Origin: an uncultured Sterolibacterium sp.
Lineage (GTDB): Bacteria; Pseudomonadota; Gammaproteobacteria; Burkholderiales; Rhodocyclaceae
Assembly: GCA_903904605.1 (NCBI GenBank)
Contig: CAIVDC010000135.1
Location: 7,173-71,172 of the forward strand
Direction of reading: 5' to 3'
DNA: 64,000 bases
How positions within the stretch are numbered: the stretch's first letter is position 1; each line of letters begins with the position of its first letter. Below, piece by piece: positions 21,757-34,860 of this stretch. Both the position numbers and the translations under genes were made by a program. A model generated the notes under the pieces. It did not search any database. It was given only the letters and a program-made list of their open reading frames with translations, and was not told where the DNA came from.

Positions 21757-22824
21757 TTATGGCCTGGCCATGATCCGTTCGACCTGGCGCCACGCCTCCT
21801 CGGCGAGCGGCCGGGCGCGCCGGCCGGTCTCCCTGGCCTCCTCGCTGGAGGCGTTGCCCTGCAGGGCACGCGCCATGATTCCCTGCATGATGCCGGCGAG
21901 CCGGAACATGTTGAAGGCGATGTAGTACTCCCATTCCTTTTCGGCGATCGGCCCCCGGCCGGTGCGCCGGCAGTAGGCGGCGACATACTGGTCCTCGGCG
22001 GGGATGCCCAGTTCCGCCAGATCGACGCCGACCAGTCCGCGAAACTGGCCGGGGGAGAGCCGCCAGCTCATGGCGTGATAGGCGAAGTCCACGAGCGGGT
22101 GCCCCAGGGTCGACAATTCCCAGTCGATGACGGCGAGGATCCTGGGCTCGTCGGGATGGAAGATCACGTTGTCGAGGCGAAAGTCGCCGTGCACGATCCG
22201 GGTTTCGTCGCCGGGCGGAATATGCCCGGGCAGCCAGGCGATGAGCTTGTCCATGGCCTCGATCTTCTCGGTCTCCGAGGCCTGGTACTGCCTGCTCCAG
22301 CGCGCCACCTGGCGCTCCAGGTAATTGCCCTGCCGGCCGTAGTCGGACAGGCCCAGCGCCTGGTAATCGACGCGGTGCAAGGCGCTGATGACCCTGTTCA
22401 TTTCGTCGAAGATCGCGCCGCGTTCGGCGCGCTCCATGCCCGCCAGTGAGGGATCCCAGAAGATCCGGCCGGGGACGTAATCCATCAGGTAGAAGACCGC
22501 GCCGACCACCGACTCATCCTCGCACAGGGCATGGCTTCTGGCCACCGGCACCTCGCTCCCGGCCAGGGCGGTGATCAGGCGATATTCCCGATCGACGGCA
22601 TGGGCCGAGGGCAGGAGCTTGCCCGGCGGCTTGCGGCGCATGACATATTTCCTTCCCGGGGTATCGATCAGATAGGTCGGGTTCGACTGGCCGCCCTTGA
22701 ACTGTTCGATGGCGAGCGGCCCCCTGAAGCCGGGGACATGATCGGCCAGCCAGGCTTCCAGGCGCCCCGGGTCGAATGCGTCGCGACCGGCGGCCGGCCG
22801 GGTGCCGATGGAATCCGCGTCCAT
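21757..22824 (-). CDS. Phosphotransferase-family (APH-like) kinase, of the type commonly paired with acyl-CoA dehydrogenase
   Basis: 355 aa. It has the Brenner-type catalytic motif [13 protein letters not shown] and [10 protein letters not shown]. Confidence 0.8.
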
Positions 22825-22830
22825 GCCGAC

Positions 22831-23604
22831 TCAGGTGATGCAGGCTCCGCCGTCTATCGCCAGGGTCTGGCCGGTGATGTGGCGCGATGCCTCGGAGGCG
22901 AGGAACACCACCGCGCCCTTGAGATCCTCCTCACCGCCCAGGCGGTGCAGCGGCGTCATGGCGACCACCGATTCACCTATCGTTTCGAGCACGCCCTGCG
23001 ACATCCGCGACGGGAAGAAGCCCGGGCAGATGGCATTGACGTTGATATTGTACTTGCCCCACTCCGCGCCCAGCGCCCGGGTGAAATTGACCGCCGCACC
23101 CTTGCTGGTGTTGTAGGCGATGGTGCTCATGTCGGGCGGATTGCCGGACAGGCCGGCGATCGAGGCGAGATTGATGATCTTGCCCGACTTCCTGGGGATC
23201 ATGACGCGCTTGCCGACTTCCCGGCAGAGCAGGAACACGGCGTTGATGTTGAGGTTCATCACCTTGTTCCAGGCGTCGAGCGGATGGTCCTCGGCCGGCG
23301 CGCCCCAACTGGCGCCGGCGTTGTTCACCAGGATGTCGATGGTGCCGTACCTGGCCAGCACGGCGTCGACCAGGCCGGGGATGCCGTCGAACTTCGCCAG
23401 ATCGCAGGCGTAGGTCATCACTTCGATGCCGAGATTCTTCAGATGCGCTTCGGCCTCGTCGAGCTCGACCTGCTTCCTCGCCGTGATCGCCAGCTTGCAG
23501 CCCACCTCGCCCAGCGCTTCGGCCAGCTGCAGGCCGAGCCCGCGCGAGCCGCCGGTAATCACGGCAACCTTGCCGGAAATGTCGAACAGTTCTTTCACGC
23601 TCAT
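22831..23604 (-). CDS. SDR-family oxidoreductase
   Basis: 257 aa. It shows VITGGSRGLG, NNAGAS and YNTSKGA. Confidence 0.85.
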   Translation of the reverse strand: MSVKELFDISGKVAVITGGSRGLGLQLAEALGEVGCKLAITARKQVELDEAEAHLKNLGIEVMTYACDLAKFDGIPGLVDAVLARYGTIDILVNNAGASWGAPAEDHPLDAWNKVMNLNINAVFLLCREVGKRVMIPRKSGKIINLASIAGLSGNPPDMSTIAYNTSKGAAVNFTRALGAEWGKYNINVNAICPGFFPSRMSQGVLETIGESVVAMTPLHRLGGEEDLKGAVVFLASEASRHITGQTLAIDGGACIT

Positions 23605-23628
23605 ATCGATCCCCTTGGACGACTTCGT

Positions 23629-25512
23629 TCAGTTGAAAGTTTTTCCTTCGGCCGCCAGCCGGATCAGGAGCGGCGCCGGCTGCCAGAGCCCGGCCGCGGC
23701 TCCGGGTTCTCCGGCGTAGCCGGCCATGGCCTGCACCACCCGGTCGAGGCCGGTCGCGTCGGCATAGAGCAGCGGACCGCCGCGGTGGCGCGGGAAGCCG
23801 TAGCCGATCAGACAGAGCATGTCGATGTCGGAAGCGCGCTGGGCGATGCCTTCATCGAGCAGGCGGGCCGCCTCATTGACCAGGGCGAAGATGCAGCGCT
23901 CGACGATCTCGGCGTCGCCGATCCGGCTCGGCGCCTCGCGGCTGCCGGCGCCGCTGCCCAGAGGCCCGTTGGCCATGCCCCAGTCCTCCAGCGCCAGATC
24001 CACCTGTTGCCGGCTCGCGCCCTTCTCCACCACCATCTCTGCCGCCTTGCGGTATTGCCCGAACATGCGCTCGCCTATGAAGCCTTCGCAGACGCCCGAG
24101 ACCACCCCCGTCTTCCTGATCTTCTTGGCCAGTTGCATCACCGTGGCCAGGACATCCCTCGCCGTGGCGGCGCCGCGCACCACTTCGAGCAGCTTCGCGA
24201 CGTTGGCCGGACTGCGGAAGTGCATGCCGATCACGTCCTGCGGCCGGTTGGTGAATCCGGCGATCCTGTTCAAATCCGCGGTCGCGGTGGCGGAGGCGAG
24301 GATCGCGCCCGGCTTCATGACTTCGTCGAGTTGCCTGAACACGGTTTCCTTGGCGCCGATATCCTCGATCACCGCCTCGATCACCAGGTCGCAATCCTTG
24401 ATCTCCCGGTAGTTCAGGGTGGCGGAGAGCAGCGCCATGCGCGCGTCCATCTGCTCCCGCGGGAGCCTGCCCTTCAACACCGAATCCTGGTAATGCCTGC
24501 GGACGGCCGCGAGTCCGCGCTCGACGGCCTCCTGCCCGATCTCGAGCAGGGTCACGGGAATGCCGGCATCGAGCAGAGCCATGCCGATCCCGACGCCCGT
24601 GGCGCCGGCCCCGATCACCGCGACCCGTCCGATCTTGCGCGTCGGCGTGCCCTCGGGCAGGTCGGGAATCTTCGCGCAGGCGCGCTCGCCGAGGAAGGCA
24701 TGGCGCAGCGCGCGCGACTCCGGACTGGCCATCAGTTCGACGAAAAGCCCGCGCTCGAACTTCAAGCCCTCTTCGAACGGGAGCCCGACCGCCGCAGCCA
24801 CCGCCTCGACGCATTTCAGAGGCGCCGGGAAATGTTTCGCCTCTGCGCCAATCCGCTTGCGCGCCTGCTGGAAGAAAGCCTCATGATCGGGAGCGTCGAG
24901 GCTGATGTCGCGCACGCGCTTGAGTGCCGGCTTCTCGGCGATCAGCTTGGCGGCAAAGGAGAGCGCGCCGCCCAGCAGGTCGCCCTCGATGAATTGGTCG
25001 AACAGCGCCGTGCCGCTGAGCTTCTCGGAGGGTACCGGCGCGCCGGAGACGATCATGTCGAGTGCCGCCTCGACGCCGATCAGACGCGGCAGCCGCTGGG
25101 TTCCGCCGGCGCCGGGCAGAATGCCCAGCTTGACTTCCGGCAGCGCGATCTGGGCACCGCCGATGGCGACACGGAAGTGGCAGCCCAGCGCCAGTTCCAG
25201 GCCCCCGCCCATGCAGACGCCGCCGATCGCGGCGATCACCGGCTTGCGGCTGGCCTCGATGGTGCGGATCACGGTGTCCAGCCTGGGTTCGGCAGTCGAT
25301 TTCGGCGACCCGAACTCGCGGATGTCCGCCCCGCCCGAAAAGGCGCGGTCGCTGCCGATCAGGACGATGGCCTGGGCCCGGTCGTCGGACTGGGCGGACG
25401 TGACCCCGTCGACGATATGCCGGCGCAGGTCGTGGCCGAGGCCGTTGACCGGCGGATTATCCAGGGTGATGACGGCGACGGCACCGTGCAGTTGATAGGC
25501 GGTGTTGCTCAT
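23629..25512 (-). CDS. Bifunctional enoyl-CoA hydratase / 3-hydroxyacyl-CoA dehydrogenase (FadB-like)
   Basis: 627 aa. The N-terminal crotonase fold shows [11 protein letters not shown] and GGGLELAL. It is followed by an NAD-binding region ([13 protein letters not shown]) and HCDH domains. Confidence 0.85.
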
Positions 25513-25605
25513 GCTCGCTCCTGTTTGGCGAAATCGGTATTTCCCGCCTGCTCTGCGGAATCGGCTCTGGTGTGCGGCGAGGGCATGGCAGCTTCCGCCG
25601 CCGGG

Positions 25606-25634
25606 ATTATAACCAGCCCGGTCGAAGCCTCCAA
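25606..25634 (-). promoter_or_regulatory. Putative sigma70 promoter for the fadB-like gene (TTGGAG-N17-TATAAT)
   Basis: On the reverse strand there is a perfect TATAAT (25611-25606), a 17-nt spacer and TTGGAG (25634-25629). It lies in the 168-nt gap after the 100-aa gene and about 90 nt upstream of the ATG at 25512. Confidence 0.4.
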
Positions 25635-25680
25635 TCGAGGCGCGAAGCGGGGAAGTTCGGATTGCGCTGAACGCCGACGA

Positions 25681-25983
25681 TCAGGGGTCGAGACGACGCA
25701 CGTGTTCGCGGTGGATGAAGAAGACTTTTTCAGGTCCGCCCCGCCGCACCCGCAAGGCGAACCGCTGTCCCGGCGCCAGGCCCAGTTCACGGGCCAGTTC
25801 CTCGGGAAAATAGATCTGGATGCTCGGGTCTTCCGGCTTGACCATGGAGATGAAGCCTTCCACTGCGCGCGCCGCCGTCAGATCGAGGCTCACGAGTACG
25901 AATCCCGGCCGCTCATCCGGGGCCGCAACGGCCGCGACCCGGCCTTCGACATCGGCCCAGTTGGGGGCAATGGCCACCATCAT
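25681..25983 (-). CDS. Hypothetical 100-aa protein, last gene of the M6-protease/ATP-grasp operon
   Basis: The ORF has high GC3 and a purine-rich stretch (GGGAGAGAGAG) just upstream of the ATG. It starts 39 nt after the ATP-grasp stop. I recognise no family. Confidence 0.6.
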   Translation of the reverse strand: MMVAIAPNWADVEGRVAAVAAPDERPGFVLVSLDLTAARAVEGFISMVKPEDPSIQIYFPEELARELGLAPGQRFALRVRRGGPEKVFFIHREHVRRLDP

Positions 25984-26022
25984 GCTCTCTCTCCCAAAGT
26001 GTCGTCTCCGATTCGAATCCGG

Positions 26023-26967
26023 CTATGCCCGTGCCTGGAGCCCGGCCAGATAACGCACGATACCACCTGCAATGTCCTGTCCGGTATTTTCCTGAAAATA
26101 GCTGTAGCCGGGAGAAGGGTTGACCTCGAAGCAGGTGTGGAGGCCCTCCGGACTGCGCTTCAGATCGATGCCGCAGAGCGGCAACTGCAGCGCCCGGGAC
26201 AATTGAAAACACTGCTGCCGCACCGGTCCGGGCAGTTCGCAGGCTTGCATCGCCACCGCCTGGCCGTCCCTGCCGGCGTAACGGTAATCCACCGCGGCGG
26301 AATCGATTTCCGAGGCGAAGATTTCTTCTCCCGCGACATGCACCCGAATGTCGGTGCCGGTCAGCAGTCGCTGGAACTGCACGGGCAGCGCGCGAATGCG
26401 ATCGAGCTGGCCGAGCCGTGGCCCGGTCAGTTCCTGGACGATGGAGCGCACGGAACTGATCGACTTGAAGATCAGGCGGCGCTGGCTGTCGTGGAATTTG
26501 CGCACCGCCTCGGGGGAATTGCTGACGAGGGTCTCCGGGACGGACAGCCCGGACTCCACGATGCGTTGCATCTGATAAGGCTTGGACAGGTTGGAGGCCA
26601 TCGCCGCGGTGCGATTCATGACGCGCCAGGGGAGAACTTCGACGAGTTCGAAAAGGCTGGCATGAAACAGCAGCGAGCGGTCACGGGCTCCCGTTTCATC
26701 CGTGCCGGCACCGGCCAGTTGGCGGTTTTCCGGCAGCAGGACCGGTTCCATACAGCGCAGATAGAGGCCGTCGATTTCGGCAAAATCAAACCGGCGGCCA
26801 CGGATTTCCAGTTCCCCCTGAAGGGATTCGCCGTCGAAGGCAAAGCGCAAGCCGGCGTATCCGGTTTCCCGCTGGGAAAGCACGGCATAGGGCACTTCGA
26901 GCCGCTCGGCCGCTTCCGCCACGAGTTTCATCGGACTCTCCGACGGCACGCCCCAAAGCAGGATCAC
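26023..26967 (-). CDS. ATP-grasp peptide/protein ligase (MvdC/MvdD- or RimK-like)
   Basis: 314 aa. The C-terminal catalytic region PLCGIDLKRSPEGLHTCFEVNPSPGYSYFQENTGQDIAGGIVRYL carries the Asp and Glu-x-Asn metal ligands typical of ATP-grasp ligases. The start overlaps the upstream paralog by 4 nt. Confidence 0.75.
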   Translation of the reverse strand: MILLWGVPSESPMKLVAEAAERLEVPYAVLSQRETGYAGLRFAFDGESLQGELEIRGRRFDFAEIDGLYLRCMEPVLLPENRQLAGAGTDETGARDRSLLFHASLFELVEVLPWRVMNRTAAMASNLSKPYQMQRIVESGLSVPETLVSNSPEAVRKFHDSQRRLIFKSISSVRSIVQELTGPRLGQLDRIRALPVQFQRLLTGTDIRVHVAGEEIFASEIDSAAVDYRYAGRDGQAVAMQACELPGPVRQQCFQLSRALQLPLCGIDLKRSPEGLHTCFEVNPSPGYSYFQENTGQDIAGGIVRYLAGLQARA

Positions 26968-27803
26968 GGCCTTGCCGCCATGTCGGCCAAGTCGCCGAGA
27001 TAGTCGGCGACGACCCCGGCCGCTTGCCAGCCGGCGTGCTCCGGGAAGGTGCTGAAATGGCTCAACTTCCAGGCGCCATGCGGGTCGCGGGCGAGCCGCA
27101 ATTCCATCAGCGGATGGCCGCCGGCGGACTGAAGCCGGCCCAGCGCCTCGTCGCGCAGCTGCAGATCCGGCCGGGTACGATAGCGTCCGGCGACGGTGAT
27201 CGGGATTTCGTCGCCGAGGGCGCAGTCGGAATAGACCCTGGGCAGAGCACCGGCGACCGGCGAGCTATCCGCGGCGAGGTCGCCGCAGGGCATTCCCTGC
27301 GGCGAAACCAGCCGCCTCAGGCGGTACGCTCCGGGGCACGAATGGCGGCGCGGGTCCGTGCTGAAGCCGTAGTGCGCCACCTCCAGGCCGGCGCGGGCAG
27401 CCGCGTGGAGCGCCTCGATACGGCTGTACTGCCGTCCTGGAAGAGCCAGCGGCGAGGGCGGATTGATCACCCGTGGGCCCAGGCTGTGGAGCCAGCTCAG
27501 CAGCAGCGCGTGCATTTCCGAGCAGGCGTAGGCGCGATCGTAATCGTCGGCTGCAGCAAACCGGGGGACGACGACCTGTCGGATGCGGTTGAACATCAGG
27601 AAGGGCTCCGCGTCGCCCAGGACCAGCCCCGATGCCAGGCGCACGCTTGAACTCGCTACCCCATCGCGCAGGGCGTGATGCCATTCGCCGGCCGAGACCA
27701 GTTCCTCCACCGATACCAGCTGCCGGGAAGCGCCAGGGAAGCGCCGCCCGAGCAGGGCGTTGACGCGCGCCGCCAGCAGGTCGCCGGCGTGCGCGACGGT
27801 CAC
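26964..27803 (-). CDS. Degenerate ATP-grasp-like paralog (predicted catalytically inactive)
   Basis: 279 aa. Its C-terminal region PLMELRLARDPHGAWKLSHFSTFPEHAGW aligns with PLCGIDLKRSPEGLHTCFEVNPSPGYSYF of the neighbouring gene, but all three metal-ligand positions are replaced (D to R, E to H, N to S). Confidence 0.6.
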   Translation of the reverse strand: MTVAHAGDLLAARVNALLGRRFPGASRQLVSVEELVSAGEWHHALRDGVASSSVRLASGLVLGDAEPFLMFNRIRQVVVPRFAAADDYDRAYACSEMHALLLSWLHSLGPRVINPPSPLALPGRQYSRIEALHAAARAGLEVAHYGFSTDPRRHSCPGAYRLRRLVSPQGMPCGDLAADSSPVAGALPRVYSDCALGDEIPITVAGRYRTRPDLQLRDEALGRLQSAGGHPLMELRLARDPHGAWKLSHFSTFPEHAGWQAAGVVADYLGDLADMAARP

Positions 27804-27830
27804 GATAGGGATCAGGGCAAGCCTTTCCGC

Positions 27831-29672
27831 TCAGCCGGGGCCGGTGTCGTACAGACGCTTCGCCCCGGCCGCGGAACGAGGCAGTGCTTCCTGTGCGGAT
27901 TGCGCATCGTCCTCATTGCCGAGCGCACTGGCACTCAGGTCCGGTCTCAGGCTGGCATCGATGAACGGCCGGGCGGAGACGCCGGCCGCCGCTTCTAGCG
28001 CCGCGAGGCGGGCTTCCACCGCTCCCGCCCAGTCGCCGGCGCTGCCGAAGACACTGCCCGGGCCGCCGCCCGGCCGATCTGCGAGCTTGTGGTCGGCGAA
28101 CTTGTCGGCGCCCTTGTCCAGGGCCGCGGACTTGTCCGTCATCGGCTTTTCCACTTCCTTGCGGACGCTCTTCTCGATCTCCTTGACCGCTTCCTTCCCG
28201 ACCTCCTTCGAGCTTTCCTTCAGGACATTCTTGCGGTCGGTGATCTCCTTCACCTTGACGACGCATTTCACCGCAACGGTGGCGCTCATGACCGCCGCGG
28301 AAGCCGAGATGTTGGATACCGACACGCAGGTATTGACACGGCCATAGCTGAGCGAGTTCGGGGTCGAGGCACTGTCGAACTTGCCGTTGTTGCTCGTGCC
28401 GGGGAAAGGATCGCCGGCATCGCCGCGGTTGTGGCCGAGTTCCAGGTCGCGCTTGCCGTCGGCCTGGATCAGGGCGACCTTGGGATGGTTCTCGTCGCTG
28501 TTGGCGGCGATGGACTCGTCTATGTGCCAGACGAGCAGGCCATCACCGGGCAAGTCCGCGTCGTAGCCTTTGCGTTGCCTGTTTTCCATCAGGAAGTATT
28601 CGTTGCCGCCGGCACCGTCCTTCCAGAGACGATAGAGGGTATGGCTGTCCTTGACGTCGCCGATGGACAGGTTGCCGTTGGCCGTCAGGTTGACGGTGCT
28701 GGCCCAGCCCTGATTGGCCTTGCACCAGGCGGACGGGTGGGAAGGAATATCTCCGCCGCCGTTCCAGCTGCCACCCGACATCAGGCACCAGTTGCCGACA
28801 CCGGAACTGGAATAGTCGGTGTCGTAAAGATCGGGAAGGCCGAACAGCAGGTGCCCCAGTTCATGGCAGCAAACGCCGATGCGGGAGTCCTCGGGGACCG
28901 TCAGATAGCTGTAGATCTTGGTGCTGCCGTCGGCGGTGTAGGCGCCGCCCGGCAGGTTCCATTTGTGCGACCAGATGTCACCCGAACTGCCCGATACTTC
29001 GGCGCCGGTCCCGGCATGGATGACGATGAAGGCATCGACGAAGCCGTCATGGTCGTTGTCGTATTGGGAATAGTCCACCGTCGGATTGGACGCCACGGCC
29101 GCGTCATAGGCCATGGTGCGCGCATTGGGCAGCGCCCCGCCCATGCCGGATGCGCCGTGAGCGTATTCGCCGAGTGTCTTCGGCAGGGTGAACGGGCCGG
29201 TCACCTGGCCGACGATGTCCACCAGGCCGTGGGTCACGTCCCGGTAGTATTCCCTGACGCTGCCGTGAGGAAGCTTGCCGAGCGAGAAGAACAGATCTTC
29301 GAAATGTGCCTTGGTGTTGGCCATGGTCTTGTCGGAAAACTGCGCCAGAACGACCGCCACCTTGAGCGTGCCGGTGAGCGGCGAACGATCCGCCGCGGCG
29401 CTCCTGACCACCCGGGCGGAAGTCCCGAGCGGAAACATGTCGCCGGGATAGATCAGACCATCGTTCATGCCGGGGGACGCGGGCGCCCTGAGCTTCATCA
29501 GATGGGCGATTTCGGGTGCCGCCGCCTTCATGTTGTCCAGTTGCGCTTTCAACTGTTTCGCCAGGTCCGGGTGAGGGGCCACCATGCAACGGTGGCCATC
29601 GTGGGTTTCCCGCGCGGCCCGGTAGACCCGCGCCACGGCCTGCAGAACTTCCCGCTGGTGTTCGTGCGACAT
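27831..29672 (-). CDS. M6-family (InhA-like) zinc metalloprotease, no signal peptide, with a 141-aa low-complexity C-terminal tail
   Basis: The start is at M23 of the track ORF (MSHEHQ), downstream of AGGAGGAG. The zinc motif is CCHELGHLLFGLPDLYD (HELGH at 28851-28865). Further M6-type conserved blocks are present (DIWSHKW, GNWCLMS, DGLLVWHID). The N-terminus is hydrophilic. Confidence 0.8.
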   Translation of the reverse strand: MSHEHQREVLQAVARVYRAARETHDGHRCMVAPHPDLAKQLKAQLDNMKAAAPEIAHLMKLRAPASPGMNDGLIYPGDMFPLGTSARVVRSAAADRSPLTGTLKVAVVLAQFSDKTMANTKAHFEDLFFSLGKLPHGSVREYYRDVTHGLVDIVGQVTGPFTLPKTLGEYAHGASGMGGALPNARTMAYDAAVASNPTVDYSQYDNDHDGFVDAFIVIHAGTGAEVSGSSGDIWSHKWNLPGGAYTADGSTKIYSYLTVPEDSRIGVCCHELGHLLFGLPDLYDTDYSSSGVGNWCLMSGGSWNGGGDIPSHPSAWCKANQGWASTVNLTANGNLSIGDVKDSHTLYRLWKDGAGGNEYFLMENRQRKGYDADLPGDGLLVWHIDESIAANSDENHPKVALIQADGKRDLELGHNRGDAGDPFPGTSNNGKFDSASTPNSLSYGRVNTCVSVSNISASAAVMSATVAVKCVVKVKEITDRKNVLKESSKEVGKEAVKEIEKSVRKEVEKPMTDKSAALDKGADKFADHKLADRPGGGPGSVFGSAGDWAGAVEARLAALEAAAGVSARPFIDASLRPDLSASALGNEDDAQSAQEALPRSAAGAKRLYDTGPG

Positions 29673-29724
29673 GTTCTCCTCCTTTCGCAGTCTATGGAGT
29701 CTCCTCTTGCGGCGAGACGTCGTA

Positions 29725-29747
29725 AATGCATACAGCATGTATGCATT
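29725..29747. promoter_or_regulatory. AT-rich perfect palindrome AATGCATACA-gca-TGTATGCATT (putative operator)
   Basis: 10-bp perfect inverted arms are separated by 3 nt. The site lies in the 223-bp divergent intergenic region between the M6 protease and the aldehyde dehydrogenase. Confidence 0.5.
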
Positions 29748-29895
29748 CCGTCGGCATTATCCGGCAGGCATTTCCTGACGGTCAAGCCTCGGCTCGCATT
29801 TGCTCCCGAAACGTGCGGCGCATGGAAAGCCGGCACCATGCACGGTATGATGGCGACCGCGCCCCGGCAAGATCCCCAACTCAAGCGAGAAGCTC

Positions 29896-31332
29896 ATGGA
29901 AAACCGCGACAAGCTCTACATCAACGGCCGGTGGGCCATCCCGAACGGCAGGCAGACCATCGAGGTCATCAACCCCGCCACCGAGGCGGTGATCGGGCGC
30001 GTTCCCGAGGGTACGGAGACCGACGTCGCTGCGGCCGTCGCCGCGGCCCGGGCCGCCTTCCCCGAGTGGAGCCGGAGCACCCCGGAACAGCGCGCCGGAT
30101 TCCTGTCGAAGATCCAGGAAGGCCTGGCGGCCCGGACGGATGAGATCGCCCGCACCATCACCGCCGAGGTCGGCATGCCGCTCAAGCTCTCGACCCGGAT
30201 CCAGGCAGGTTCGCCCATCGCCATCTTCGGCCTCTACGCCAGGATGGCCGGTGAATTCAAGTTCGAGGAACAGGTCGGCCATTCGCGGGTTGTGCGTGAA
30301 CCCGTCGGCGTCGTCGCCCTGATCACGCCCTGGAACTACCCCCTGCACCAGATCGCCGCGAAAGTCGCGCCGGCCCTCGCTGCGGGCTGCACCATCGTGC
30401 TCAAGCCCTCGGAAGTGGCACCGCTCAATGCCTTCATCCTGGCCGAAGTGATCGCGGCGGCAGGCCTGCCCGACGGCGTCTTCAACCTAGTCACCGGTTT
30501 CGGCGCGGCGGTGGGCGAGGCGCTGGTGCGCCACCCCGAGGTGGACATGGTTTCCTTCACCGGTTCCACCCGCGCCGGAAAACGCGTCTCGGAACTGGCG
30601 GCGCAGACCGTCAAGCGCGTGGCGCTGGAACTGGGCGGCAAGTCGGCGGCCGTGATCCTCGACGACGCGGACTTCGCGACCGCCGTGAAGGCCACGGTCA
30701 ATGCCTGCTTCCTCAACAGCGGCCAGACCTGCACCGCCCACACGCGCATGCTGGTGCCCGAGTCCCGCTACGACGAAGCGGCGCAACTGGCCGTCGCAGC
30801 GGCGCAGGCGTTCACCCTCGGCGACCCCTTCGCCGACACCACCCGCCTGGGCCCCCTGGCCTCGGCGATGCAGCGGGACCGGGTGCGCGATTACATCAGG
30901 CAGGGCATCGGCGAAGGTGCCGTTCTGCTTTGCGGCGGACCGGAGGCGCCGGAGGCGCTGAGCCAGGGCTTTTACGTCAAACCGACGATCTTCGGCCGGG
31001 TCAGTCCCGGAAGCACGATCGCCCAGGAGGAGATCTTCGGCCCGGTGCTCGCCATCATCACCTACCGGGACGAGGACGATGCCGTGGCTATCGCCAACGG
31101 CACCCTCTACGGACTGGCCGGCGCGGTCTGGTCGGGCAGCGACGATCAGGCGCTGAAAGTGGCGCTGCGGCTGCGCACAGGCCAAATCGACATCAACGGC
31201 GGCGCGTTCAACCTGCAGGCGCCCTTCGGCGGCTACAAGCAGTCGGGCAACGGCCGCGAATTGGGCAAGTACGGCCTCGAGGAATTCCTCGAGTACAAGG
31301 CGCTGCAGATGAAGCCGGCGAAGGCCGGCTGA
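29896..31332 (+). CDS. NAD(P)+-dependent aldehyde dehydrogenase
   Basis: 478 aa. It has the catalytic Glu in [10 protein letters not shown] and the catalytic Cys in [10 protein letters not shown], plus EEIFGPV. Confidence 0.9.
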
Positions 31333-31625
31333 AACCAAGGGCTCGCCGCCTCGACCGGGATATTCAGCGCGGCGGCAAGTACCGACGCTCCTCTGCCCGG
31401 CTCTTTCGGTCCCCGGCTTTGCCGCCGCACTGATGGTCGGAGCAGCCGCGTGACGGCACGCCCAGGGCCGGGGTTCCGGAAAAACGCGGCATCGAAGCAC
31501 GGGGCAAACGGCCCACGTCTTCATCAGCTTGCCGCAGAAATGCAATTACAGTATTCTACATTCGCCTGCAAGCGCGCCCCGCTGCGGTCCCTCGACGATA
31601 GCCGCCCGGGCATGGCGGCGGAACG

Positions 31626-32414
31626 ATGCCAGACATGAGCGAACATATCCTGAGCGAAGTGACGGACGGCGTGCTTCAGATCGAGATCAGCCGCCGCAGC
31701 AAGAAGAATTCCCTGACCCAGTCGATGTATGCGGCGATGAGCGATGCGCTGCAGCAGGCCGATGCCGACGATGCCGTCCGCGTCGTCCTGCTGCGCGGAC
31801 AGGACGACCTGTTCACCGCCGGCAACGACCTGCAGGATTTCCTCTCGCGCAAGAGCAACGAACCCTCCGAAGCGATGCGCTTCATGCAGGTCATCGCCAC
31901 GTTCGGCAAGCCGCTGGTCGCCGCGGTTGCCGGCAACGCGATCGGTATCGGCACGACCATGCTGCTCCACTGCGATCTGGTCTACGCCGCCGACAATGCC
32001 CGTTTCCAGTTGCCTTTCGTACCGCTCGGATTGTGCCCCGAAGCCGGTTCCAGCCTTCTCCTGCCGCGGTTTGCCGGCCATCAACGCGCTGCCGAACTGC
32101 TTTTTTTCGGCGAGCCTTTCGATGCCGCGAAGGCCTGCGAGATCGGTCTGGTCAATGCAGTCCATCCGCATCCGGAACTGCTTGCCGCCGCAGGCGCGCG
32201 CGCGCGCAAGCTCGCGAGCCTGCCACAGGCGTCGCTCGCCGCGACCAAGTCGCTGATGAAACGCGCCACGGCAACTGTCGTCGCCGACACGATGCAGGCG
32301 GAACTGCTGCATTTCAGCGAACTGGTGGCCGCTCCCGTGGCCAAGGAAATCTTTGCCGCCTTCCTGGAAAAGCGCGCTCCCGATTTTTCAGGGATCGCGG
32401 CGCGCCGCCCATGA
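31626..32414 (+). CDS. Enoyl-CoA hydratase/isomerase family protein
   Basis: 262 aa. The crotonase fold shows FTAGNDLQDF and AVAGNAIGIGTTMLLHCD. MSEHIL at 31635 is an alternative start. Confidence 0.85.
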   Translation: MPDMSEHILSEVTDGVLQIEISRRSKKNSLTQSMYAAMSDALQQADADDAVRVVLLRGQDDLFTAGNDLQDFLSRKSNEPSEAMRFMQVIATFGKPLVAAVAGNAIGIGTTMLLHCDLVYAADNARFQLPFVPLGLCPEAGSSLLLPRFAGHQRAAELLFFGEPFDAAKACEIGLVNAVHPHPELLAAAGARARKLASLPQASLAATKSLMKRATATVVADTMQAELLHFSELVAAPVAKEIFAAFLEKRAPDFSGIAARRP

Positions 32415-32550
32415 GCGTTACGAACCGGCTCCCTGGGCAAAAACGATTCGAAGGCAGAAGCGGCCGACTGGCGGCCGCTTGAGACGCATCCGGTTGCGTG
32501 AAGCGCGTGACCGGATGAATGGCAATTCACCGGTGACTGGGAGATAGGCA

Positions 32551-32874
32551 ATGCGCTCGCCCCGATTCGGATTCTTCGGCATTTTCGTGCCGCTGCTGGT
32601 CTTGTCCCTTGCTGCAGGCGCTCAGGAACCGCAAGCCCCGCATCAGAATGCCGCCCCGCCCGATCCGGGGCGTGAACTGCTGTTGAGCAAATGCGGCCAG
32701 TGCCACACCGATTCGATCTGGCGCGACCAGCGTCAGGACGCGCGCGCCTGGGAAGCGACGCTCTATCGCATGCTGGCTCGCGGCGGCGTCTGGAGCAGTG
32801 AGGAGATCAAAACCATGAGCCAATACCTTGCGGCGAACTTCGGGCCCGATTCGCCCAGGACGCCGGCCCGTTGA
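32551..32874 (+). CDS. Small periplasmic monohaem c-type cytochrome
   Basis: 107 aa. It has a signal peptide (FGIFVPLLVLSLAAGAQE) and a single CGQCH haem-binding motif. Confidence 0.75.
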   Translation: MRSPRFGFFGIFVPLLVLSLAAGAQEPQAPHQNAAPPDPGRELLLSKCGQCHTDSIWRDQRQDARAWEATLYRMLARGGVWSSEEIKTMSQYLAANFGPDSPRTPAR

Positions 32875-32928
32875 CGCCAAGATCGGAAAGCCGCTGAAAT
32901 TTCCCGTGCGCCACCCTAGGAGCTATCG

Positions 32929-34860
32929 ATGAGAGATCTGGTCGAAAAATATCTGTCGAAGTCCATTTCGCGACGCGGCTTTCTGAACAACATGAAGAAG
33001 GTGGGCATCACGGTTGCATCGGCCAAAATGGTGCTGTCCTCGCTCTCCGATGCCGAGGCGCAGACCGCGACGGCCGGGACTTCGTCCGTCGCGGCGGCCT
33101 TGCCGGTCAAGCAGTTCCAGGGTACGGGCGGCGCCTGCCTGGCCGAGCAGCTCATGGCCTGTGGCGTCAGATATGTCTTCGGCAATTCGGCCAGCGAGGA
33201 CGCCGCATTCTATGACGCGCTGGTCGATCGGCCGCAGCTGAATTACATCCTGACCCCGCATGAAGGCCCCGGTGCCGCCATGGCCGCCGGCTATATCAAG
33301 GCCTCTCAGCAGCCGGCGATCGTCATGCAGGCGGGCGCCGTAGGTCTGATGAACGCCATGGGGCAACTGTTCAATGCCCACAAGGAGCAGACTCCGCTGG
33401 TGGTCTATTCCTATCGCACCGATCGGTCGCGCAACGCCGGGTGGGACGGTTTCGAGGAGATCGCCAACCAGGAACAGGTGGTGCAGCCGTTGACCAAATA
33501 TTCGTGGATGGCGCGCGGTTCATCGACGATTGCCGAAACGGTGCGCCATGCCTTCAAGACCTCATGGACGCCGCCTCACGGCCCTTCCTATCTGACCTGG
33601 CACTCCGACTATACCGGCGAGCGGACCCGTACCGAAATCGTGCAACAAAGCCATTTCGACCCGCGCATGCACGTGCGCCCCAACCCGGCTGAAATCGAGC
33701 GTGCGGCCAGGATGCTGGTGGCGGCCAGGATGCCGGTCCTGGTGGTGGGCGACGAGATATACAAGGCCAAGGCAGTCGCCAAGGCCGTGAAACTGGCCGA
33801 ACTGCTCGGCATGCCCGTCACCCAGATGCGCCAGCTGTGGGTCAACTTCCCGCAAGCTCATCCGCTGTGGGTCGGCAATGCGCCGGCGGGTCGCCTGGCG
33901 TCGATTACCTGGCCGAAGAACTTCGATGTCGCCATCAACGTCGGCAACAAGATGCAGCATTCGGGCGCCGCCCCCATCGTCGCGCACGAGATCAAATTCA
34001 TCGACATGCGCATCGACTTCAACAACATGGGCAAAGTCATGACGACCGATGTGCCCCTCGTCTGCGATGTCGGTCTCGGCCTGGACGATCTTATCGCCGC
34101 GGTCGAGCAGATCATGACGCCGAAGCTGCATCAGCTGGCGGCAGATCGTGCGTTGGAAGTGAAAAAGTATACGGACCATGCCCGGGTATTGCTGAAAGGG
34201 GTGGTCAATAATCCCGAGTGGGACAACGCGCCGCTCATCGCCGATCGCGTGACCTGGGAAGTCGCTCAATTCGCCGACCCCGATGCCATCATCGTCCATG
34301 AAGCGGGCTCGGTGGCCATGCACTCGTTCGGTTTCAATCCCGTCGGCGGACGGGAATTGTTCTACTACTACGGGGGCCATCTGGGCTCCGGCGTCGGCGC
34401 AGCCGCCGGCATCAAGCTCGCGCGCCCCAACCAGCAGGTCATCTGCATGGTCGGCGACGGCTCCTTCCTGTTCGGCCCGCAGGCTCTGTGGAACATGGCG
34501 CGCCTAGAGTTGCCGGTCATCGTCATCGTATACAACAACCACGCCTATGGCGGCCCGCATTCGCGCTCCATCGCCAATGTGCCATCCGGGCGCATGGTTG
34601 AAACCGGCCATTACATGGCCAGCTACCTCGGCAATCCGGACATGAACATGGCGTCGATCGCGGCCGGTTTCGGCGTCAAGGGCGAAGTCGTCAATGACCC
34701 CGTGCAACTGAAGGCGGCGCTCGCACGCGCCAGGAAGTCCAGCGTCGACGGAAGGCCCTATCTCATCGATGTTCAGGTCGTGCGGCGCGGCATCGGCTGG
34801 ACCGAGTCGCCCTGGACTCCGCCGGTCAAGGGAGCAGAGATGCGCTCCCGGAAAGTCTAG
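32929..34860 (+). CDS. Thiamine-diphosphate-dependent enzyme (acetolactate-synthase/benzoylformate-decarboxylase superfamily) with a twin-arginine export signal
   Basis: 643 aa. The Tat motif is SRRGFL (32968-32985), followed by a hydrophobic region and AEA. The PYR domain carries the catalytic Glu (TPHEGPGAAMAAGY). The ThDP-binding motif is GDGSFLF...VIVIVYNNHAYG. Confidence 0.8.
   Translation: MRDLVEKYLSKSISRRGFLNNMKKVGITVASAKMVLSSLSDAEAQTATAGTSSVAAALPVKQFQGTGGACLAEQLMACGVRYVFGNSASEDAAFYDALVDRPQLNYILTPHEGPGAAMAAGYIKASQQPAIVMQAGAVGLMNAMGQLFNAHKEQTPLVVYSYRTDRSRNAGWDGFEEIANQEQVVQPLTKYSWMARGSSTIAETVRHAFKTSWTPPHGPSYLTWHSDYTGERTRTEIVQQSHFDPRMHVRPNPAEIERAARMLVAARMPVLVVGDEIYKAKAVAKAVKLAELLGMPVTQMRQLWVNFPQAHPLWVGNAPAGRLASITWPKNFDVAINVGNKMQHSGAAPIVAHEIKFIDMRIDFNNMGKVMTTDVPLVCDVGLGLDDLIAAVEQIMTPKLHQLAADRALEVKKYTDHARVLLKGVVNNPEWDNAPLIADRVTWEVAQFADPDAIIVHEAGSVAMHSFGFNPVGGRELFYYYGGHLGSGVGAAAGIKLARPNQQVICMVGDGSFLFGPQALWNMARLELPVIVIVYNNHAYGGPHSRSIANVPSGRMVETGHYMASYLGNPDMNMASIAAGFGVKGEVVNDPVQLKAALARARKSSVDGRPYLIDVQVVRRGIGWTESPWTPPVKGAEMRSRKV

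Follow-up and report, generated by a model that had tools for sequence, protein, structure and literature searches.

A four-gene operon in a Sterolibacterium contig

The 64,000-nucleotide stretch of DNA analysed here (the window) comes from contig CAIVDC010000135.1 of an uncultured Sterolibacterium sp. and carries, on its minus strand, an operon of four genes: an M6 (InhA-like) zinc metalloprotease, a degenerate ATP-grasp paralog (the partner), an ATP-grasp ligase of the graspetide-macrocyclase type and a protein of 100 amino acids (aa). Comparison with related loci points to a tail at the C-terminal end of the protease as the most likely substrate of the ligase, rather than the 100-aa protein, a homolog of which has been listed as a precursor peptide.

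The listing of open reading frames (ORFs) places the four genes at the coordinates of Table 1, co-directional and as tightly packed as the first-pass annotation – made from the letters of the sequence without database searches – had described: 27 nt separate genes 1 and 2, genes 2 and 3 overlap by 4 nt, and 39 nt separate genes 3 and 4. A strong ribosome-binding site, AAGGAGGA, stands ahead of the protease ATG at 29672. A scan of positions 25400-30000 found no terminator-like site, and hence none that separates the four genes.

Table 1. Features of the operon and its promoter region (window coordinates).
Feature	Position	Strand	Description
Gene 1, M6 (InhA-like) zinc metalloprotease	27831..29672	-	613 aa from MSHEHQ; TIGR03296 234 bits, PF05547 1e-26; ribosome-binding site
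M6 catalytic domain, residues 107-383	28524..29354	-	TIGR03296 match spans positions 1-286 of the 286-position model
HELGH zinc-binding motif, residues 270-274	28851..28865	-	motif located; conserved in homologs
Lys/Glu/Asp-rich tail region, residues 468-535	28068..28271	-	22 % Lys, 21 % Asp+Glu; candidate modification site
Conserved tail module, residues 545-595	27888..28040	-	helix VEARLAALEAA, then docking-type motif; tail hidden Markov model (HMM) E 7.9e-18; predicted local distance difference test (pLDDT) of helix ~85
Invariant core PFIDASLRPDL, residues 569-579	27936..27968	-	alignment across carrier classes; translation verified
Gene 2, degenerate, catalytically dead ATP-grasp paralog (partner)	26964..27803	-	279 aa; without Pfam or NCBIfam match
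Gene 3, ATP-grasp ligase, graspetide-macrocyclase type	26023..26967	-	314 aa, GTG start; TIGR04187 4.9e-31, MvdD/MvdC ~1e-18
Gene 4, 100-aa beta-rich protein	25681..25983	-	family pattern IENW...VEGF...RVRRAG...FxHP; homolog of the published group 32 'precursor'
Putative sigma-70-like promoter, TTGACC-18 nt-GATAAT	29756..29785	-	upstream of protease gene; 10/12 matches in consensus scan, sequence verified
Perfect palindrome AATGCATACA-N3-TGTATGCATT	29725..29747	.	10-nt arms, 100 % complementary; between -10 hexamer and start codon

The protease belongs to the M6 family, its TIGR03296 score of 234 bits standing against a cutoff of 110.8. Residues H270, E271, H274, D281 and Y283, which make up the HExxH...D..Y motif, are conserved in at least 95 % of 36 M6 homologs, and this shows the protease to be, as far as its active-site residues tell, catalytically intact. 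The N-terminus is hydrophilic and carries no apparent signal peptide; the same is true of the homologs, and of every component of the operon. Both points – the HELGH motif and the missing signal peptide – had been made by the first-pass annotation, and we take the M6 protease to be cytoplasmic. Characterised M6 members are typically secreted with a signal peptide, although this is not strictly defining for the family. Ahead of the catalytic domain, M6-class N-termini carry a conserved segment, HDGHRCMVAPSPEL (window 29580-29600, residues ~25-31), whose mostly conserved Cys – missing in one locus, L011 – is reminiscent of the cysteine-switch propeptide of matrix metalloproteases.

An intact ligase and a degenerate partner

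The best NCBIfam match of the ligase is the graspetide maturase TIGR04187 (108 bits), and a search of the Protein Data Bank (PDB) with a profile of 17 homologs returned PsnB first (1.4e-35), then CdnC, MdnC (down to 1e-22), AMdnB and MdnB, with RimK at ~1e-10. The ligase family is best described as a distinct sister family to the graspetide maturases. Residues K168, R208, D227-Y228-R229, D268, E281 and N283 are invariant in the 17 diverse homologs, the ATP and Mg ligands and the D(F/W)R loop being kept; by this measure the ligase is catalytically intact.

Comparison with PsnB, which together with its substrate PsnA2 (a group 2 graspetide) provides the best solved ligase relative, extends the likeness to substrate recognition. 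PsnB (PDB 7DRM; bioRxiv 10.1101/2021.03.09.434688) binds the leader LFIEDL mainly through Phe15 in a hydrophobic pocket; its Arg213 recognises the ring-forming acid, its D(F/W)R loop binds ATP, and it acts as an asymmetric dimer on a multi-repeat core. All three elements – Arg213, the loop and the leader-Phe pocket – are common to both enzymes. In an alignment with a chain offset of 20, which matches all seven named PsnB residues, Arg213 corresponds to the invariant R208 and the loop to D227-Y-R229, while the pocket residues Y171, I193, L196, V201 and F203 become F167, L188, I191, V196 and F198. Two of these, L188 and F198, are invariant, and the other three are conservatively substituted.

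The public record of an identical protein (P0001) counts 302 aa from an ATG at ~26931. Reading from the GTG at 26967 gives the segment MILxxGxPSExP, which homologs share without change; the annotated protein thus probably begins 12 codons too late, and the 314-aa frame from GTG proposed in the first-pass annotation is backed by this conserved N-terminus. The same annotation had seen one complete ATP-grasp of the peptide-ligase type, a reading borne out by the macrocyclase-type matches and the invariant catalytic residues, and one degenerate paralog. The latter is confirmed by profile comparison of the partner with the ATP-grasp family (hhalign 96.7 %, E 4e-10). The ATP and Mg ligand residues are missing from the partner, and an iterated partner HMM also recruits ligases. 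Partner residues 59-277 align to residues 57-314 of the ligase, nearly its whole length: the protein is degenerate and not limited to two N-terminal domains.

The association of the pair is strict. In 76/76 evaluable loci from many phyla the ORF next upstream of the ligase is partner-like, and co-occurrence, which the first-pass annotation had left to comparison across genomes, is therefore far beyond chance. In Fibrella aquatilis (L032:5272-8001) the ORF that encodes the M6 protease and its tail runs in frame into the partner gene to give a 910-aa ORF (...LDTKVPDTITLNNKHTHPMKKLLII...); in the related loci L038 and L042 a stop codon stands between the two. The long ORF is either an assembly error or a natural fusion of tail and partner, and such a fusion would speak for physical contact between the two.

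A C-terminal tail accompanies the ligase and its partner

The protease ends in an extension of ~146 aa, in which a Lys/Glu/Asp-rich region is followed by a Gly-rich linker, an amphipathic helix and the motif PFIxxxxRPDLxxxAL. Across homologs the order of elements is a Lys/Glu/Asp-rich stretch, a Gly-rich linker, an LExRLxxLE helix, the motif [P/H]-F-I-x4-R-P-D-L-x3-A-L-x2-E-x-D and a variable end. As the first-pass annotation had remarked, no short precursor gene of the graspetide type – an N-terminal leader followed by a core of Thr/Ser/Lys and Asp/Glu – lies next to the ligase (gaps 27 and 39 nt). A conserved leader-like motif occurs only past the K/E-rich stretch of the 613-aa protease, at its C-terminal end, and the HMM of this tail motif has a single match in the 64-kb window, at that very place.

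The ligase family is large (2236 matches, ~50 % identity across phyla), and a scan of one genome per species gave 550 ligase relatives. We compared 83 loci: 80 fetched from these 550 relatives and three further. The fetched loci come from Proteobacteria, Acidobacteriota, Chloroflexota, Nitrospirota, Bacteroidota, Actinomycetota, Myxococcota, Gemmatimonadota, Verrucomicrobiota and methanogenic archaea. Ahead of the partner stands a gene for an M6 protease in 46 loci, for an S8 subtilase in nine and for a trypsin/NAL1-like protease in nine; in eight more the module sits on stand-alone proteins of 130-300 aa that are mostly K/E stretch and motif, with no peptidase within +/-8 kb. No fourth gene is conserved among these stand-alone loci beyond close relatives.

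What the carriers share is the tail. In tblastn searches only the last ~140 residues of the window protease match the S8 and trypsin/NAL1-like carriers. The tail HMM matches 76/77 evaluable sequences, each time at the C-terminus of an ORF that ends just before the partner gene, and in the ~1 Mb of six-frame sequence it finds nothing else save a second adjacent peptidase in two loci. These two (L031, 3268-7174; L056, 3559-7174) encode two tandem tail-bearing proteins upstream of one pair of partner and ligase – an S8 subtilase, then a tail protein of a different type, with a B_lectin-like N-terminus in L056 – and both proteins end in the motif. Alignments of the M6, S8, trypsin-like and stand-alone classes show no change at F, I, R, P and L of the motif and hardly any at D. 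FI is preceded by P in 42/44 M6 loci and by H in 25/28 others, a split that follows the clade of ligase and partner. Beyond the motif the C-termini vary in sequence and in length, from 8 to ~40 residues (...DTGPG, ...EKLREG, ...DLGRKR).

When the ligases are placed in a rough neighbour-joining tree, members of the S8, trypsin-like and stand-alone classes fall among one another within a single clade, a sign that carrier domains were exchanged more than once and that the tail stayed in place. The comparison of loci shows the component that always accompanies partner and ligase to be the tail module, and neither the protease domain nor the 100-aa protein. The unit as a whole behaves as a portable module found in unrelated genomic contexts, in keeping with the discrete unit of the first-pass annotation.

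Among 1.84 billion representative proteins the tail profile found 542 clusters. The motif stands at the extreme C-terminus in nearly all of them, and the long matches were again trypsin/NAL1-like or S8 proteins. Against a set of 5.8 billion proteins it returned only short proteins of 33-100 aa. The short match that we examined (P0121) lies just upstream of a partner and ligase and looks like a piece of a stand-alone tail gene split by gene calling; it is not taken here as a case for very short precursors.

Every tail-bearing homolog has a K/E-rich region (median 75 aa, 27 % K, 27 % D/E, 2 % R). Its 22-27 % K and 2-4 % R compare with 0.4-2 % K and 9-11 % R in the partner, ligase and small protein of the window, a difference that points to selection for Lys against the genomic bias. 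Spacings from K to D/E are enriched at +1, +4, +5, -2 and -5. The region is retained in the stand-alone proteins, where no linker is needed, which favours a role beyond that of a spacer. AlphaFold2 (AF2) models the window tail with two charged helices (residues 469-488 and 493-507) and disorder in the linker that follows, after which come the conserved helix, the extended motif and a C-terminal helix; it predicts no compact fold (predicted template-modelling score, pTM, 0.25).

Many M6-class tails contain a submotif, EKP(V/I/M)TDKSxxxDKG, inside the K/E region (window 28080-28150, residues ~508-531). With Thr, Asp, Lys and Ser close together, it is a candidate ring-forming site specific to the M6 class.

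Complete M6-type loci with all four genes also occur in archaea (L011, L019, L021, L026, L028 and L030, from Methanoregulaceae, Methanospirillum and related metagenome-assembled genomes, MAGs). At 48-50 % identity to the betaproteobacterial enzyme, the archaeal ligases imply exchange between methanogens and bacteria. In a Nitrospira locus (L001:9622-11655) the four-gene unit is followed on the same strand by a gene for a 677-aa papain-like protein (Peptidase_C1) without the tail motif.

Relation to published families

The first-pass annotation did not recognise this gene combination as a described system. On this point it was mistaken: by description the operon corresponds to branch 8 of Makarova et al. 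2022 (Biol Direct, PMC8939145), and by sequence to graspetide group 32 of Carter et al. 2026 (ACS Chem Biol, PMC13097080). In branch 8 an ATP-grasp is accompanied by a second, truncated and inactive one and by peptidases from several unrelated families, and a precursor could not be predicted. All four of these features hold in the 83 related loci, a match by description alone, and the authors report no conserved peptidase tail.

Group 32 comprises 46 predicted, uncharacterised clusters with 'diverse families of neighbouring proteases', the M6 family TIGR03296 being present in 21.7 % of them. Its listed 'precursor peptide', from Spirosoma sp. KCTC 42546, is 98 aa long and has, by the authors' own account, few conserved residues. 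This protein aligns with the family of our 100-aa protein (hhalign 99.6 %, E 8e-24) and is 82 % identical to the small protein of L042, a locus whose ligase is 45 % identical to that of the window. By the sequence of this representative and the shared neighbourhood, the window operon is a member of group 32. The accessible text of the survey mentions neither the dead ATP-grasp paralog nor a shared C-terminal tail. The group is built only from ligases with a small ORF scored by RODEO, so that the S8, trypsin-like and stand-alone classes, in which the small protein is absent, are missed. In the literature, Iyer et al. 2009 (Mol Biosyst) not being covered, we found no experimental characterisation of the family; the gene combination is thus catalogued bioinformatically and experimentally uncharacterised. 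Recognition of the protease-borne tail, and not the published 'precursor', as the conserved element appears to be new relative to the accessible literature.

How does the system compare with characterised graspetide synthetases? The PsnA2 leader LFIEDL resembles the tail motif [P/H]FI[D/E/G]xx. PsnB, however, is a homodimer that modifies free short peptides bearing a leader at their N-terminus, and forms Thr-Glu ester hairpins, whereas here a dead paralog probably serves as second subunit, a protein of 130-870 aa carries the recognition motif at its C-terminal end, and the likely target is rich in Lys and Glu with few Ser or Thr. A precedent is offered by the myxomiditides (MyxF/MyxD1/MyxD2, PMC12848669), in which MyxF makes Lys-Glu lactams on (KxxE)n repeats and ATP-grasp paralogs form obligate hetero-assemblies. 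Partner-dependent synthetases are also known from rosaritide (MirB-MirC, PMC13097080). In these systems the paralogs are catalytically competent or the partner is peptidyl-prolyl isomerase-like, and the precursors are short, of secreted type and equipped with N-terminal PFFxRFx leaders. Genes for export or leader removal, of the C39 peptidase-ABC transporter or HlyD kind, are absent from the operon and its flanks.

A different parallel is offered by the borosins. Their precursors (OphMA type) consist of an enzyme fused to its own core peptide, so that a core resembling that of other ribosomally synthesised and post-translationally modified peptides sits at the C-terminus of a large enzyme. In borosins it is the methyltransferase responsible for the modification that is fused to the core; here a protease is fused, and a separate gene encodes the modifying enzyme.

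A proposed model of tail-directed modification

Taken together, these data lead us to propose, with moderate confidence, that the system carries out a graspetide-type modification directed at a protein tail: a heterodimeric ATP-grasp would dock on the tail motif and modify the tail that bears it. The intact ATP-grasp and the dead paralog would form a heterodimer in place of the PsnB/MdnC homodimer, and this heterodimer would dock on the helix and xFI motif in the manner in which graspetide synthetases bind leader motifs such as LFIEDL and PFFARFL. Since the recognition element is C-terminal to the likely target, it would be a 'follower' rather than a leader. The ligase might then phosphorylate Asp/Glu of the tail and join them to Lys epsilon-amines (or to Ser/Thr hydroxyls), giving isopeptide or ester cross-links in or beside the K/E region – a step that we regard as a serious possibility, though one that falls short of probable. 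Most speculatively, the modified tail could hold the cytoplasmic protease latent or protected as a cis inhibitor, or the protease could release the tail as a product. Free graspetides act as inhibitors.

Several observations weigh against this proposal. The ligase falls below all curated graspetide maturase cutoffs (350-475 bits), and for the best of them scores 108 against 350. The KxxE spacing (+3) seen in MyxF substrates is not enriched in the tails (z = -0.5), and no Ser, Thr or Lys near the conserved tail motif is invariant. The isolated charged helices predicted by AF2 would also fit a passive single-alpha-helix spacer. The P/H split before FI fits co-evolution of tail and ligase, and it is confounded by shared phylogeny. 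One locus, the sole evaluable one without a tail (L015, 3711-7072, from an Anaerolineales MAG), has partner, ligase and small protein but no tail-bearing gene; the ORF upstream of its partner encodes an 815-aa SH3_3/META/Ig-like protein. To these must be added the published listing of a homolog of the 100-aa protein as a precursor, which is taken up below.

Extended to its full reach, tail-directed modification would be a widespread class, present in ~550 species-level genomes including methanogens, in which the heterodimer recognises a C-terminal follower ([P/H]FIxxxxRPDLxxxAL) and cross-links K/E tails on three unrelated protease folds or on stand-alone proteins. This would produce either a covalent, ATP-dependent latch on proteases inside the cell, or protein-sized graspetides made from self-sacrificing protease precursors, and the group 32 precursor assignment would be wrong either way. 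We offer this extended form tentatively and consider it doubtful.

Alternative explanations

One alternative, which we judge unlikely, is that the peptidase cuts other proteins of the cell into peptides on which the ligase then acts, and that the tail is no more than a flexible tether with a docking peptide which keeps the protease at the ligase complex. For branches 7 and 8, Makarova et al. 2022 (PMC8939145) proposed just such a supply of substrates, by peptidases that cut other cellular proteins. The catalytic residues of the peptidase are conserved, the C-terminal motif does resemble a docking peptide, and the prediction of isolated helices and disorder in the K/E region is what a spacer might give. 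Yet the stand-alone tail proteins keep a long K/E region with no peptidase in the locus, the strong bias of Lys over Arg suggests a chemical role for Lys and not for charge alone, and no candidate external substrate is known.

Less likely still is ligation of the RimK or tubulin tyrosine ligase (TTL) type, in which glutamate or another amino acid would be added to the C-terminus or acidic side chains of the tail with no intramolecular cross-link. RimK belongs to the same ATP-grasp superfamily, shares the DFR loop and the Mg ligands, and modifies the C-terminal tail of a full-length cytoplasmic protein. The tails of ribosomal protein S6 and of tubulin offer a parallel for a protein tail as substrate. 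The ligase, moreover, matches the RimK Pfam family at 2e-8, TIGR00768 at 6e-16, RimK structures at 1e-10 to 1e-11 and a RimK-like family of PHROGs at 2.6e-7. Graspetide models and structures nevertheless do far better: RimK models reach 38-59 bits against 108 for TIGR04187, and RimK structures ~44 bits (44-48) against 126 for PsnB. The RimK family cutoffs lie far above the scores obtained (58.6 against 143 bits for TIGR00768, 37.7 against 331 for PRK10446). Of the two logics put forward in the first-pass annotation, it is thus the graspetide one that stands and the RimK-like one that is the weaker. The ligase also has a conserved leader pocket of the PsnB type, and the tails show neither the conserved acidic C-terminus expected for extension of the RimK type, nor a conserved Glu-rich end, nor any conservation of C-terminal sequence or length.

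The published alternative, that the 100-aa protein is a graspetide precursor which the ligase cyclises and from which the protease removes the leader, we consider improbable. It has in its favour that Carter et al. 2026 (PMC13097080) list the 98-aa homolog as the group 32 'precursor peptide', a homology that our comparison confirms; that the gene follows the ligase after 39 nt; and that a near-invariant Glu-Asn stands near the N-terminus of the protein. Its distribution tells against it. The small-protein family HMM finds a match in 45/45 evaluable M6-class loci and in 0/26 loci of the S8, trypsin-like or stand-alone classes, which have the same pair of ligase and partner; the 100-aa protein therefore tracks the M6 protease and not the ligase pair. 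Conserved positions are mostly hydrophobic or Gly, the C-terminus is variable, and there is no conserved pattern of Thr/Ser/Lys with Asp/Glu; the group 32 authors themselves note how few residues are conserved.

The 100-aa protein has no match in Pfam or NCBIfam, and a homolog search from its sequence alone gave two near-identical proteins only. With that two-row alignment AF2 produced a five-strand model of low confidence (pLDDT 60.6), which looks like a folded beta domain and not like a leader followed by a core. Foldseek returned nothing significant for this model (best E 0.096), the top non-significant matches being OB-fold-like barrels. In two Caldilineaceae loci (L003:9182-9868 and L005) the small protein is fused to a C-terminal DUF4160 to give ~228 aa, and this fusion argues for a folded module rather than a precursor peptide. 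The 100-aa protein is best read as an accessory specific to the M6 protease, possibly an inhibitor or an adaptor. Of the two candidate substrates named in the first-pass annotation – the protease tail and the 100-aa protein – the tail is thus strongly favoured, the other being linked to M6.

That the enzyme is a small-molecule ligase of the D-Ala-D-Ala ligase, glutathione synthetase or LysX type which merely adjoins a protease is very improbable: the profile searches gave weak matches only (glutathione synthase 0.064, LysX 3.6e-7; 12-30 bits against cutoffs >270), and a synteny of three components that is kept strictly across phyla, a conserved protein tail among them, speaks for a protein substrate.

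Promoter region and genomic context

The palindrome that the first-pass annotation had noticed upstream of the operon is confirmed. It lies just downstream of the sigma-70-like promoter and is a candidate operator. At the other end, the annotation had credited the next gene with a TATAAT promoter of its own: the hexamer is there, between the operon and that gene, but it has no -35 match, and the scan of 25400-30000 found no full promoter in this interval.

On the flanks lie genes for a short-chain dehydrogenase, a FadB-like enzyme, an aldehyde dehydrogenase and an enoyl-CoA hydratase, and so the operon does sit among genes of acyl-CoA metabolism, as had been observed. The further suggestion that it was inserted there is not supported. 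There is no anomaly of GC content or skew at the operon, and a Sterolibacterium MAG shares synteny over the whole of 25681-33987, flanks included, with nucleotide identities of 78-84 %; horizontal insertion was dropped on these two grounds. A role in anti-phage defence was likewise set aside (PADLOC gave 0 matches among the four proteins), as was phage origin, for which PHROGs gave one weak match only, of the ATP-grasp to the RimK-like family. The 64-kb window contains no Rfam family and no tRNA. A 1490-aa open frame on the plus strand (window 22531-27003) runs antisense to five real genes and is an artefact of high GC content, not a gene.

Implications

Two large surveys have left loci of this kind without a convincing substrate, the one finding no precursor and the other arriving at the 100-aa protein by automatic scoring. 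The comparative answer is that the substrate, or at least the docking site, is a tail module grafted onto metallo-, subtilisin-like and trypsin-like proteases. If this is true, then graspetide-type chemistry would extend from short secreted peptides to full-length cytoplasmic proteins, and a C-terminal recognition motif and a pseudo-enzyme subunit would be added to the logic of the ligases. A precursor assignment that genome mining would otherwise keep spreading would be put right as well. With their three genes, the stand-alone versions provide a minimal system for experiments. For the proteases themselves – intracellular enzymes of three unrelated families that end in the same tail – tail modification would suggest a new mode of control.

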